Translations under genes and position numbers: made by a program
Notes under the pieces: generated by a model
What the model was told of the DNA's origin: nothing
The model's database searches: none
What the model saw: the letters and a program-made list of their open reading frames with translations, nothing else
NCBI GenBank assembly: GCA_020854835.1
Contig: JAHKLX010000007.1
Coordinates: 36,044 to 100,043 of the forward strand
Origin: Candidatus Micrarchaeota archaeon
GTDB taxonomy: Archaea; Micrarchaeota; Micrarchaeia; Anstonellales; JAGGVH01
Length of the DNA: 64,000 bases
Reading direction: 5' to 3'
In this document: one piece after another, positions 25,172-57,602 of the stretch
Layout: every line of letters starts with the position of its first letter
How positions within the stretch are numbered: position 1 is the first letter of the stretch

Positions 25172-25281
25172 GAATCTATTAACTGGAAAATAGGTGTTAG
25201 AAAAACAAATTATGCCCAATTTTGATAATGCTAAAATTATCACAGTTAGATTTATATTCTTAAGTTACCACAATAAATAAC

Positions 25282-26019
25282 ATGATGCTCAAATCCAATA
25301 CTAGAAAAATTATAGCTACAAGCAATGAATTTAATTTAGTTCAACAAACAAATGCCCGTGGAAGCTCTTTATGTCTTCTTGGACCAGGCGGAAAACTAAT
25401 TGGGGCAAATGATGTGCCAACAGAATTATTTCAATATATTGCAACAGGATGTGATTCAATAGTCTATAAATTTGGAGAAACCGCAGTGAAAGTTTATTGG
25501 CAGGCAGAATGGATAAAGGAACGCAGAGGGATAGACTGCAAAGAATCTGTGGAAAAACTTAAACAATATCAGACAATACTGAAAAAGATGGCGACGGTGA
25601 CAAAAAATAAGGTACTTTTGAAAAATACGGCATATGGCAATGTAAAAGTAGAAATAGTCCCAATTGATTCAATTTGTGAGGAGATTGACGCTGAATTGGC
25701 CACAGTATTGAAAACACTTAGTTATGAATGTCAATATCTGCCCTCTTGCATCAGAACGATGTCATTTGCAGGGATGCCGGTTTGCACACAAGAATATGCA
25801 ACTGGCAAACATACGGCCTGGGAGTTCACTGAGTGCCATCCCTTGATTGAACAATTGGAACATTTTATCCGTCACCAAATAAGAAAACATGATGAAAAAG
25901 GTACTTTTGAAAAAATCTATCCAATAAATTTGTGCAATGTGAGGGCAGTTCAAACTCAAAACGAGATGACTTTTGTTGTTACAGACCCGCTCACTGTTGT
26001 TTTGGATATGCCATCCTGA
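25282..26019 (+). CDS. Orphan protein with protein-kinase-like N-lobe
   Basis: IATGCDSIVYKFGETAVKVY resembles a Gly loop plus VAIK; NV...VVTD near the C-terminus. Confidence 0.55.
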   Translation: MMLKSNTRKIIATSNEFNLVQQTNARGSSLCLLGPGGKLIGANDVPTELFQYIATGCDSIVYKFGETAVKVYWQAEWIKERRGIDCKESVEKLKQYQTILKKMATVTKNKVLLKNTAYGNVKVEIVPIDSICEEIDAELATVLKTLSYECQYLPSCIRTMSFAGMPVCTQEYATGKHTAWEFTECHPLIEQLEHFIRHQIRKHDEKGTFEKIYPINLCNVRAVQTQNEMTFVVTDPLTVVLDMPS

Positions 26020-26045
26020 TTTTTTTATTATAAAAATATATCTAA

Positions 26046-26486
26046 TTACCAACCATACATCTGTTCAATGGCTTTAGATAATAAGATCCTAAGTAAAATT
26101 CCCTCCCCTTTAGAAATATTTACATTGACTGCTTTCAAACCCTCATTTGTTTGCTGACTAACTCTTACAGAAAAACCCATACTAGAAGATGAAAAATTCA
26201 CAACTGCATTCTTAACGCTTTCAGCGGTTTTATATTCTCCTTTAGAAGGTTGATGAAAAAGTTTAACTTCACTAGTACAACCTTCTAAAACCTCCAAAAT
26301 CCTGCCCATATCAGATGCTGAAAGTTTGACAGTTATTTTATTGTCCCAGTCAAATCTATCCTCAGATTTCTGGTTAGCGCATTCCATAAAAACTGATTGT
26401 TTTAGTTTGTTGAAATCTACCTGTAAAGCAGATCCATTGATGTTTTTATTTGCTTTGTATATTGCAAAAGACTTACTTCTTTCCAT
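26046..26486 (-). CDS. Whirly-like single-stranded nucleic-acid-binding protein
   Basis: FAIYK...SAL, FDWDNK...LS..DMG, LFHQPSKG and terminal GW align by eye with the plant Whirly domain. Confidence 0.75.
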   Translation of the reverse strand: MERSKSFAIYKANKNINGSALQVDFNKLKQSVFMECANQKSEDRFDWDNKITVKLSASDMGRILEVLEGCTSEVKLFHQPSKGEYKTAESVKNAVVNFSSSSMGFSVRVSQQTNEGLKAVNVNISKGEGILLRILLSKAIEQMYGW

Positions 26487-26538
26487 AAAAATTTAGAAAA
26501 CAAAGTTGTTTAAAAAGCTTTTTATAGTAGATTTCCAG

Positions 26539-28038
26539 TTAAGATTTTTTGGGAGGGTTTTCTCCGAAAGCAATTTTACATGCTGCCAAGATGTTTTTAT
26601 TCCACATGCTCAACACATTATCATAAACTTTAGCATCCACTTCTTCAAGCCTTTTAACTCCGATTGTCCCACTGTTTATTTCAACTGCCAAAAGAAATAT
26701 CCCAATTTGAGGAACATAAACAGGCGTAAAATCAACAGAACCAAATTTTAAATTCATGGTTGAAGGACACAGATATTCTTTTTTTCCTTTGTTTGAAGTG
26801 TTTATGTCTTTTGACTTATCAAGCAAAGTCTGAAAAATCATTGCTGATTGTTTTTCCATGTTTTTAATTTCTTTTTCAGCTACTTCCATAATTTTGTTGT
26901 CAGGAACATACGGCCAAATCTTCTTTAGTATGGATTGTAAAACATCCATGCTGTTTGCAGGATTGCCAGATAAAGATAGGTTTGCAACGAAATCTGAATC
27001 GCCTACTTTTGAATAATTTGCAGTACTTTTAAATTTTCCATTGACTTCTTGGACAACAAATCTAAATTCAATTTTTGTAGGCATTGAGGAGAGATGATAT
27101 TCTTCTTCTAAGAGAAAATTTGTCTCGCCCCCTAAAACTTTGTGAAAATATGGAAAATAAGTTTTCAATAAAACTCTTTTAACCATCTGTTTGTGCGTTT
27201 CTTTTTTCTTGGGGACAAAATAAAGAATTTTTTCATTTTTGGAATCGGGTTTTCCACCGTGTTTTTTCAATAATTTTTGTAATCTGTCATCGCTCGTTTG
27301 AATAAAAAACTTTTTTTCTTTGATACCGATTTTAACTACTCCCATGCCACAGCCAGTATGAAGAACTGGTTTTAGATAAGATGCCTTTCCTAGATCTGCA
27401 TTGCGATAAAAAAAATCCAAGAACTTTGCGCTTTCTTCTTTTGCTTCGATTAAAGGATAGTCAGCAGGATCAATTAATGTCGAATTGTTTTTGGCACCGT
27501 GATATAAACGTGTTTTGACATTTGGAACATTTATATCCCTAACAGTAGTGTTGAAGTGATAAAGAACTTGACTTAAAACACTTTTTTGTAAAATTTCATT
27601 TATTGGTTTTGTAGGAGGTATTAATTCGCCCACCCCATCAATAATTCTTTCTATAAAGGGAACATACCTAACTGAAACGTTGGGCATTGTTAAGTTATAA
27701 TCAGAGAGAATGCTTTGAGTGAAGGATTTGTTGTCAAAATAACGTGGCAAACTTGTTGTAACGGGAAGAAGTTCTCCTTTTTTATAATAATCCCAATGTG
27801 CCTGCTCTTGAAGCCAAAACTCTGTTACAGCAACCTGTTTGGGATCAACAAGATAAACTTTTTCTTTTTCATCTTGCACTTTCCATTTATTTTGGCAGAG
27901 AATAGTTTCCCACTCTTCCCTCTCGCCTGCAAGAGTGTAAACAGGGTATTTTCTAAGTTCATCTTTCACATTTGTGAATGTTCGAATTAAAACTATTCTT
28001 TTATCTTTTGGAATTTCCTTCAATTTTTCTCCCTTCAT
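26539..28038 (-). CDS. ATP-grasp domain protein (YheC/YheD-like)
   Basis: LKPVLHTGCGMGV, EFRFVVQ, VANLSLSG, GSVDF, VEINSG motifs. Confidence 0.65.
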   Translation of the reverse strand: MKGEKLKEIPKDKRIVLIRTFTNVKDELRKYPVYTLAGEREEWETILCQNKWKVQDEKEKVYLVDPKQVAVTEFWLQEQAHWDYYKKGELLPVTTSLPRYFDNKSFTQSILSDYNLTMPNVSVRYVPFIERIIDGVGELIPPTKPINEILQKSVLSQVLYHFNTTVRDINVPNVKTRLYHGAKNNSTLIDPADYPLIEAKEESAKFLDFFYRNADLGKASYLKPVLHTGCGMGVVKIGIKEKKFFIQTSDDRLQKLLKKHGGKPDSKNEKILYFVPKKKETHKQMVKRVLLKTYFPYFHKVLGGETNFLLEEEYHLSSMPTKIEFRFVVQEVNGKFKSTANYSKVGDSDFVANLSLSGNPANSMDVLQSILKKIWPYVPDNKIMEVAEKEIKNMEKQSAMIFQTLLDKSKDINTSNKGKKEYLCPSTMNLKFGSVDFTPVYVPQIGIFLLAVEINSGTIGVKRLEEVDAKVYDNVLSMWNKNILAACKIAFGENPPKKS

Positions 28039-28098
28039 AATACATAAATTAGAATAAAAAGTTTTAAACCTTAGGATTTGGCAGATATTGTTTTAAAA

Positions 28099-28422
28099 TT
28101 AGAAAAGAACCAATTCGTCTCCGTTTTTAACATCACTTTTTTTGATTCCTTCCAAAACCAATGCGGCTTTATCCCTTTTATTGATAACTTCGGCATTTTT
28201 GTGGTTGACCTCTATTTTAATTATTCTGACATTTTTACCAGATATGTTGGTTCTAGAATTGAGATTTATTGAACCTGATAAAACTTCTCCTGTAATAATT
28301 GGTCCCCTTCCTGTAATATTGAAAACATCATGAACTTTGAAAACTCCTTCGCCTTTGCTTTCGACAGAAGTAGGCTTTTCAATTGTCTCAGATTTTCCAA
28401 CAAGTTTATCCCAAAATCCCAT
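28099..28422 (-). CDS. Stand-alone EF-Tu domain-2-like beta-barrel protein
   Basis: FKVHDVFNITGRGPIITGEVLSG...IEVNHK...GDEL. Confidence 0.85.
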   Translation of the reverse strand: MGFWDKLVGKSETIEKPTSVESKGEGVFKVHDVFNITGRGPIITGEVLSGSINLNSRTNISGKNVRIIKIEVNHKNAEVINKRDKAALVLEGIKKSDVKNGDELVLF

Positions 28423-28783: not shown

Positions 28784-28905
28784 AGCCTCAGAGGGGAATT
28801 GAGCCCCCGACCTCATCCTTTTCATGACCTTTTCTTTTGGTGAAGCTTTTCTTCTTAAGAAAAGGTTCTACCAAGGATGCGCTCTACCGACTGAGCTACT
28901 GAGGC
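28784..28905 (-). tRNA. tRNA-Thr(GGU) with 49-nt intron at 37/38 (28820-28868)
   Basis: GCCTCAG acceptor, CATCC TT GGT A|intron|A GGATG; intron hairpin ACCTTTTCTT/AAGAAAAGGT; 73-nt mature length. Confidence 0.92.
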
Positions 28906-53230: not shown

Positions 53231-53347
53231 TGTTAGCAGCAGTACGTCTTCCCGCCTAAGAAGGCAGTACAAACAATACCGTGCACGAGCTTAACTTCCG
53301 TGTTCGAGAAGGGAACGGGTGTTTCCTCGCGCCTATGGCCGCTAACA
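53231..53347 (-). rRNA. rrf: 5S rRNA (unlinked from 16S/23S)
   Basis: Reverse complement TGTTAGCGGCCATAG...CACCCGTTCCCTTCTCGAACACGGAAGTTAAG...GCTGCTAACA, 117 nt with paired ends. Confidence 0.95.
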
Positions 53348-57506: not shown

Positions 57507-57602
57507 GGGGCCGTAGTGTAACCTGGTCATCATGCCAGCTTGGGGATGTTTTTTAAAAACAACAAAATGCTGGTGATTTGGGTTCAAATCCCAGCGGCCC
57601 CA
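57507..57602 (+). tRNA. tRNA-Pro(GGG) with 22-nt intron at 37/38 (57546-57567)
   Basis: GGGGCCG/CGGCCCC acceptor, CCAGC TT GGG G|intron|T GCTGG, GGTTCAAATCC. Confidence 0.93.

Follow-up and report, generated by a model that had tools for sequence, protein, structure and literature searches.

A minimal Whirly-family protein encoded on a Micrarchaeota chromosome

Here, we show that a stretch of archaeal DNA encodes a true member of the Whirly family, whose founding members bind single-stranded DNA (ssDNA) in plants. The stretch, hereafter the window, comprises 64,000 nucleotides (nt) of Candidatus Micrarchaeota archaeon (GenBank assembly GCA_020854835.1, contig JAHKLX010000007.1, positions 36,044 to 100,043 of the forward strand). 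The Whirly gene lies at 26046..26486 on the minus strand, where the list of open reading frames (ORFs) and their translations gives one ORF of 146 codons with an ATG start. Its product of 146 amino acids (aa) has a mass of 16.3 kDa and a basic predicted isoelectric point of 9.08, and it is a bare Whirly domain without a transit peptide or a C-terminal tail. We lean, with modest confidence, towards reading it as a minimal chromosomal Whirly (Pfam PF08536) that serves Micrarchaeota as an accessory ssDNA genome-maintenance factor beside the replicative single-stranded DNA binding protein (SSB).

Sequence and predicted structure

The Pfam Whirly profile, which the original prediction had named as a check, matches the product with 46.4 bits (E 4.6e-12; gathering score 23). 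The match covers residues 31-133 of the product and positions 32-134 of the 136 in the profile. A six-frame search of the genome with PF08536 gave one match, at 45.9 bits. Three further Pfam families listed for the ORF were all below their own cut-offs. NCBIfam gave no match, which fits the fact that the two relatives with an NCBI name are both called 'hypothetical protein'. When all PDB chain sequences were searched with phmmer at E <= 1, the six sequences recovered were plant Whirlies without exception: AtWHY2 (4kop, 1.1e-3), StWhy2 (3n1h, 1.9e-3), 3r9y (2e-3), p24 (1l3a, 0.061) and, more weakly, AtWHY3 (0.075) and AtWHY1 (0.21). The PF08536 score and the plant-only PDB matches indicate that the likeness to Whirly is far beyond chance.

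The core motifs of the family (Y/F-D-W..K, F-H-x-P-S and a C-terminal helix ending in G-W) are present in this order, and in the HMMER alignments with AtWHY2 and StWhy2 FDWDNK falls opposite YDWEKK, FHQPS opposite FHDPS and the C-terminal YGW opposite MGW. Six further proteins in the database are 51-69% identical to the ORF product along 99-100% of its length, and an alignment of 11 Micrarchaeota sequences has 15 invariant columns. In 122 diverse relatives H78 is invariant and W47 is conserved in at least 90%. The segment that resembles the plant KGKAAL motif is IYKANKNINGSAL, in which Y10, K14, G18 and A20 are invariant in the 11 Micrarchaeota sequences. Neither the Pfam family of the trypanosome MRP proteins (PF09387, at E <= 1) nor the OB-fold Pfam families (PF00436, PF21473, PF01336 and the RPA domains) matched the product.

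An AlphaFold2 (AF2) model built from the 11-sequence alignment has a mean pLDDT of 87.9 and a pTM of 0.82, with the element order E-E-E-E-H-E-(short H)-E-E-E-H and a long last helix. The predicted fold consists of two beta-beta-beta-beta-alpha repeats (a type I PC4-like domain) and superposes on the plant Whirly crystal structures. In a Foldseek search of the PDB plant Whirly chains made up the ten best matches (E 2.2e-8 to 2.1e-7, TMq 0.71-0.73), and trypanosome MRP1/MRP2 came next. With VIA-align the best match was AtWHY2 (4kop_C, Z 17.6, root-mean-square deviation (rmsd) 2.1 A over 129 residues), then 4koo (AtWHY1, Z 17.4), 3n1h (StWhy2, 17.1) and 1l3a (p24, 16.8); over six plant Whirly entries Z was 16.5-17.6, with an rmsd of 2.1-3.0 A over 129-136 residues. 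The next tier was far lower (SsgB Z 8.0, Pur-alpha Z 7.8). Rows no more than 1 Z apart are regarded as tied, so on the modelled structure alone Whirly and MRP are inseparable, and it is the sequence that separates them.

The original prediction had claimed a plant-type Whirly domain in an archaeon, quoting the strings FAIYK...SAL, RFDWDNKITVKLSASDMGRIL, KLFHQPSKG and ISKGE...MYGW. Every one of these is present in the ORF translation, and the claim itself is borne out by a PF08536 score above the cut-off, PDB sequence matches to plant Whirlies only and a fold match at Z 16.5-17.6.

Inheritance in Micrarchaeota and the wider family

The host belongs to the Micrarchaeota (DPANN), as do all 7 relatives in the species-genome collection (Micrarchaeota/Micrarchaeia). 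PF08536 was found in 9 of 61 close relatives. In a larger sample Whirly occurs in 40/401 Micrarchaeota genomes (17/188 high-quality genomes, 23/155 genera), and it is patchy by family: it is common in families f17 (15/21), f20 (6/8) and f16 (4/7) and was found in none of the genomes of f13 (0/94), f14 (0/82) and f8 (0/76).

A quick maximum-likelihood tree of 170 rows and 145 columns was built from representatives P0001-P0156 and 25 genome-derived Micrarchaeota sequences, leaving out 11 rows with too little profile coverage (L045 among them). One clade with SH-aLRT 99 unites 23 of 24 genome-derived Micrarchaeota sequences with 19 representatives; the sequence outside it is the divergent L015. 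Mapping 11 family labels on the tree takes 10 changes, which is the minimum, whereas 200 shuffles took 16.1 on average and at least 14. This well-supported clade tracks taxonomy and suggests vertical inheritance with repeated loss as the simplest reading. The tree holds no plant sequences, and the relation to plant Whirlies is drawn from profile hidden Markov model (HMM) and structure scores. The original prediction had called for a phylogeny of the homologs and had regarded the protein as relevant to the origin of the family. The phylogeny delivers the Micrarchaeota clade but does not resolve the deep forks, and the family is spread over archaea, bacteria, phages and non-plant eukaryotes. The relevance to the origin of the family is therefore weak, and the gene says little about the source of the plant family.

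Family f7 differs in architecture from the bare domain of the window. Its Whirlies (L013 5395..6444, 349 aa; L014 5626..6441, 271 aa) and the representatives P0008 and P0011 have a low-complexity N-terminal extension, which in f7 and its relatives comprises roughly 90-210 P/Q/S-rich residues ahead of the Whirly domain. These extensions recall the condensate-driving disordered regions described for the phage protein ChmC in passages of PMC11077065.

Beyond the Micrarchaeota, a profile of the 11 sequences searched against 1.84 billion representative proteins matched 921 clusters at E <= 1e-3 (303 at <= 1e-10 and 15 at <= 1e-30). These are clusters at 50% identity, and the family is at least that large; among the proteins listed most are 140-190 aa. 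On its own, PF08536 matches 69 of 122 diverse representatives at E <= 1e-3, and at the same threshold PF09387 matches 2 of the 122.

Of 20 proteins looked up by organism, 3 carry a source name, and these three longer representatives are eukaryotic: they come from Thecamonas trahens, Arcella intermedia and Amoeba proteus (P0040, P0150, P0148; with P0053 and P0120). The Whirlies of these protists have N-terminal extensions of roughly 90-140 residues and fall in a 12-row clade (SH-aLRT 96). When compared by hhalign, a profile of these eukaryotic proteins and that of the Micrarchaeota matched along the entire domain (probability 99.7, E 2.6e-26), and protist and archaeal Whirlies have the domain start YK/R..N....G.A.QF in common. 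A profile search with the five eukaryote-like relatives recovered 3 proteins only. Given the homologues in Thecamonas and the amoebae, the family is not plant-specific even within eukaryotes.

On the bacterial and viral side, the nearest ESM Atlas clusters include a bacterial one, in which Verrucomicrobiota are commonest and which carries the automatic name 'Whirly transcription factor domain-containing protein', and several from Uroviricota. Among BFVD structures, the closest to the model carries the name 'Whirly transcription factor [uncultured Caudovirales phage]' (E 3.1e-7). A scan of IMG/VR with the alignment A1 found 1 relative (L048 2392..4459) with 28% identity on a 131-kb contig, one gene downstream of a DNA-repair-type exonuclease (phrog_284). 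The nuclease-Whirly order of this single case echoes a pairing seen in Micrarchaeota and described below. IMG/VR scans with P0070 and P0102 gave no relative, and tblastn of P0001, P0070, P0102 and P0059 against 50,697 GenBank phage records found nothing.

Phage homologues raise the question of whether the gene is a passenger, derived from a phage or mobile element or carried on a mis-binned contig, without a function in the host. The genome bin (G000) comprises 2.04 Mb in 145 contigs at 87.1% completeness and 5.59% contamination, and it is mixed: 1.12 Mb lie at 32-34% GC and ~0.9 Mb are spread over 36-52% GC, with same-genus genomes at 1.0-1.2 Mb. Statements on the gene content of this bin should accordingly draw on its low-GC contigs only. 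The mixed bin and the two flanking ORFs of the Whirly gene, both genus-restricted, would fit a foreign gene. However, the contig of the window (C30, 103 kb, 32.7% GC) falls within the main, low-GC part, and GC around the Whirly gene is flat (0.28-0.37 over 20-32 kb). The window also carries an archaeal PAC2 gene, a 5S rRNA gene (53231..53346, minus strand) and two tRNA matches that are longer than a standard tRNA: one of 122 nt at 28784..28905 on the minus strand, missed by ARAGORN, and one of 96 nt at 57507..57602 on the plus strand, to which ARAGORN gives an odd four-base anticodon. Both are probably intron-bearing. In both same-genus genomes the orthologous gene directly adjoins PAC2, the gene tree follows taxonomy, and tblastn of the Whirly protein against the 50,697 phage records returned nothing. 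A passenger origin is thus hardly credible.

A probable role beside the replicative SSB

The original prediction had further proposed an alternative SSB. Taken as replacement, this would mean that Whirly has taken over ssDNA coating from a lost OB-fold SSB or RPA, as ThermoDBP has in some Thermoproteales. The RPA C-terminal domain (PF08646) was not found in the genome, and the three PF00436 matches in the bin are on contigs C70 (50.0% GC), C46 (41.3%) and C11 (42.7%), compared with 32-34% in the main genome. Two of the three PF00436 proteins end in an acidic ..IPF tail. Such a tail is typical of bacterial SSBs. We discounted these bacterial-type SSBs as host genes, given the foreign composition of their contigs. 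But the genome has an OB-fold protein of its own: C17 (32.2% GC) encodes a 94-aa protein that reaches 36 bits with PF21473 (Ssb-like_OB; cut-off 24). Across the phylum PF21473 is present in 341/401 genomes. Of the 40 Whirly genomes 39 have it, and the remaining one (G002) comprises 210 contigs at 84% completeness. Families that often go without PF21473 have no Whirly either (f8, PF21473 41/76 and Whirly 0/76; f9, 4/17 and 0/17). The totals for PF21473, like those for histones below, include G080 and G213, two genomes flagged as unpublished, neither of which bears Whirly. With PF21473 kept in 39/40 Whirly genomes, Whirly supplements the OB-fold SSB and does not substitute for it. Co-occurrence largely refutes the replacement part of the original proposal, and we regard it as very improbable.

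The same genomes bear on the notion of a nucleoid architect, an abundant non-specific DNA compactor like plastid WHIRLY1 that might make up for absent histones. A search for histone-fold genes (PF00808) gave no match in 8 Whirly genomes, all of them from the window's order (G000, which is the genome studied here, G001, G002, G006, G008, G011, G016, G019). The P/Q/S-rich N-terminal tails of f7, of roughly 130-210 residues, could drive condensation, and passages of PMC9070903 and PMC3245945 describe WHIRLY1 as a nucleoid architect with a 24-mer form. Against this, histone genes occur in 32 of the 40 Whirly genomes (298/401 in the phylum), Alba is present here, and most histone-less genomes lack Whirly (f8, histones 5/76 and Whirly 0/76; f9, 0/17 for both). 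Within the window's order, f9 (17 genomes), f1 (2), f7 (3) and f10 (2) have no histone genes and f8 has them in 5/76. The second lysine of KGKAAL, which the plant 24-mers need, cannot be placed with confidence in the archaeal sequence. We rejected histone replacement as a general rule, given that there is no general complementarity, and consider an architectural role distinctly unlikely. In the other orders nearly all genomes have both histone and Ssb-like OB genes. The genome studied here further encodes RadA/Rad51.

The gene neighbourhood offers a different lead. We compared 25 distinct loci, namely the window plus 7 plus 20, minus the duplicates L044 and L046 and minus L038, where the Whirly gene is present but was dropped by the ORF caller. 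In 11 of the 25 Whirly is preceded on its own strand, at a distance of at most two genes, by a DHH gene, which belongs to cluster c3 in nine loci and to cluster c55 in two. The c3 gene (378-471 aa) is the immediate neighbour in 6 of its 9 loci, with gaps of -17 to +38 nt; c55 is immediate in L031 (gap 21 nt), and both c55 loci have a DHH+DHHA1 gene upstream. In L041 the order is DHH, HhH-GPD glycosylase, Whirly. The c3 representative has a Pfam DHH domain and scores 86 bits with NCBIfam HAN_nuclease and 46 bits with recJ, both far below the cut-offs; on these profile matches c3 is best classed as a RecJ-family nuclease of uncertain subtype. All 11 DHH-linked loci come from orders other than that of the window. 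The RecJ/HAN-like DHH gene directly upstream in these relatives, once accompanied by the HhH-GPD gene, would link Whirly to DNA-end processing. A conserved protein of 465-599 aa without a Pfam match (cluster c4, e.g. L029 7029..8741; loci L027-L043) is encoded convergently to Whirly in 9 other-order loci, beside a TrmB-family regulator gene.

An accessory role in genome maintenance might take the following form. The product would assemble into a homotetramer, as plant Whirlies do, and the tetramer would bind ssDNA without sequence preference along the edges of its beta-sheets, by analogy with plant biochemistry (the relevant parts of PMC7549692 and PMC3245945); plant WHY2 is described in the former as binding and melting DNA as a tetramer. 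In the cell it could shield or organise ssDNA at resected ends, gaps or stalled forks while DNA is repaired or forks restart, complementing the replicative SSB without taking its place.

Several observations weigh against this account. The nine c3 loci have the synteny TFIIB, Trm1, DHH, Whirly in common and hence count as roughly one event, with c55 perhaps a second. Neither here nor at any of the 8 loci from the window's order is Whirly linked to a DHH gene, and the c3 orthologue of this genome is on another contig (C6:70905-71861). Of the sampled Micrarchaeota, 361/401 do without Whirly, so the gene is dispensable. The plant KGKAAL motif is only approximated by IYKANKNINGSAL, which is outside the HMMER alignments: these start at residue 31 (Pfam) and at residue 21 or 40 (PDB), past that segment, so no lysine there can be equated with K67 of StWhy2. 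This second lysine of KGKAAL is the residue that, according to the section of PMC3245945 that treats it, is required for 24-mers and cooperative binding.

A further point against is that the model fits the RNA-binding MRP1/MRP2 (Z 16.1-16.5) as well as it fits the plant Whirlies (Z 16.4-17.6), a tie that would suit a Whirly-fold tetramer binding mainly single-stranded RNA (ssRNA) as a chaperone, matchmaker or handler of mRNA. Trypanosome MRP1/MRP2 and ChmC bind RNA, plant WHIRLY1 has been described as a binder of DNA or RNA, and the 2/122 representatives that match PF09387 fit the same view. ChmC, a Whirly-fold homotetramer, is given a dissociation constant of 58 nM for ssRNA versus 184 nM for ssDNA in the pertinent passage of PMC11077065. 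The conserved neighbours seen in the other orders include genes for the tRNA methyltransferase Trm1 and ribosomal protein S3Ae, although both are on the opposite strand. On the other side, the sequence matches Whirly with no MRP match at E <= 1, and the co-oriented close neighbours are DNA enzymes (RecJ-family DHH nuclease, HhH-GPD glycosylase). We therefore prefer ssDNA as the ligand and judge a primary role on RNA unlikely.

A bolder version of the genome-maintenance reading would make Whirly an old, vertically inherited component of Micrarchaeota that forms a two-part module with the RecJ/HAN-like exonuclease, in which the Whirly tetramer might hold or present the strand while the nuclease trims it, and would place it in a prokaryotic stock near the presequence-bearing Thecamonas and Amoebozoa Whirlies, a stock that would have been the origin of the eukaryotic organelle Whirlies, those of plants included. 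We put this forward as a doubtful, speculative extension.

In the window itself the gene stands alone. A TATA-like box, TATAAAAA, read from the minus-strand sequence at 26519..26526, lies 32 nt before the ATG in the 52-nt gap between the stop of a 499-aa ORF and the Whirly start. Its placing is typical of archaeal TATA boxes and makes it a candidate for a promoter that serves this gene by itself; the distance to the ATG would imply a very short leader. A TTTTT run on the same strand (26032..26036), 10 nt past the Whirly stop codon and inside an A/T-rich stretch, is a candidate archaeal oligo-T terminator. From these signals we infer that the gene is transcribed separately and nearly leaderless, probably with a TATA box of its own. 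The public runs listed with window positions 25200-28100 are six DNA runs labelled sludge metagenome, and no RNA run.

Both flanks are genus-restricted genes of unknown function. The 499-aa ORF (26539..28038) immediately precedes Whirly on the minus strand. It matches no Pfam or NCBIfam family and has no BLASTP similarity to the DHH nuclease. Its homologues (46-50% identity) were found only in two same-genus genomes, on contigs other than their Whirly contigs. For this ORF the ESM Atlas points to YheC/D-like ATP-grasp ligases (scores 0.93-0.94, 127-140 shared features), which is a lead only, and an AF2 model from 3 sequences (pLDDT 55.8) was too poor for a fold search. Downstream, a convergent 245-aa ORF of unknown function (25282..26019, plus strand) sits between Whirly and the PAC2 gene, and its homologue was found only in G002, with 33% identity and on another contig. 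We rejected a functional tie between Whirly and its flanking genes, given that the flank homologues are genus-restricted and in relatives lie on contigs apart from Whirly.

Comparison with known systems

Whirlies are called plant-specific or unique to plants in passages of the plant literature (PMC9070903, PMC11712025, PMC11359715), and a passage of PMC4758235 places them 'mainly in the plant kingdom'. At the level of the fold, reviews assign Whirly/Pur-alpha or PC4-like domains to all domains of life (statements in PMC13392464 and PMC7549692), and the word 'archaea' does not occur in PMC7549692. Among the papers listed in a full-text search, a Shedu preprint alone names both Whirly and DPANN, and its Whirly passages cover sPC4/Whirly-fold sensor domains only. 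Our full-text searches gave no publication on archaeal Whirly-family proteins and, among the papers listed, none that pairs 'Whirly' with 'Micrarchaeota'. Automatic annotation already tags such proteins PF08536. The gene reported here is a concrete, well-supported counter-example to the view that Whirlies are plant-specific. Minimal archaeal Whirlies of 146 aa could be convenient for studying core function, and the pairing with a RecJ-family nuclease in related lineages provides a testable partner.

The closest known relatives are the plant Whirlies (StWhy1, which is PBF-2 p24, StWhy2 and AtWHY1/2/3; structures 1l3a, 3n1h, 4koo, 4kop and 4koq), with which the archaeal protein has the Pfam family, the motif order and the tandem beta4-alpha fold in common at 16-21% identity. 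Unlike them, it consists of the 146-aa domain alone, lacking organelle transit peptide and C-terminal tail, and is encoded on an archaeal chromosome, and its YKANKN..GSAL segment is longer than the plant KGKAAL. Trypanosome MRP1/MRP2 share the Whirly fold at Z 16.1-16.5, but the archaeal protein does not match the MRP sequence family, and the part of PMC7549692 devoted to MRP1/2 describes a heterotetramer with the RNA backbone bound to the face of the sheet.

ChmC of jumbo phages is likewise a small Whirly fold from the prokaryote world and, in the passages of PMC11077065 concerned, a proven homotetramer that binds single strands. It differs in its beta3-alpha repeats, its preference for RNA and, according to the same passages, a lack of detectable sequence similarity to known proteins, whereas the archaeal protein is a Whirly at the sequence level and a host gene. 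More broadly, the PC4-like/Pur-alpha/YdbC superfamily has the same general fold class, with units of beta-sheet and helix that bind single strands (as outlined in sections of PMC7549692, 10.1101/2023.08.10.552793 and PMC12065111). In the defence proteins Shedu and Menshen the sPC4/Whirly sensor domain is joined to a nuclease or an ATPase, unlike the stand-alone archaeal Whirly. Pur-alpha is a much weaker structural match (Z 6.4-7.8), and its Pfam family does not match the archaeal protein.

ThermoDBP, in the portion of PMC4041433 that describes it, is an archaeal ssDNA binder without an OB fold. It stands in for the classical SSB and its fold is unrelated, whereas the Whirly-bearing Micrarchaeota keep an OB-fold Ssb-like gene in 39/40 genomes. 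The archaeal Whirly is genuine and its host unexpected, but as a new member of a known family it is ordinary and does not represent a new kind of system.

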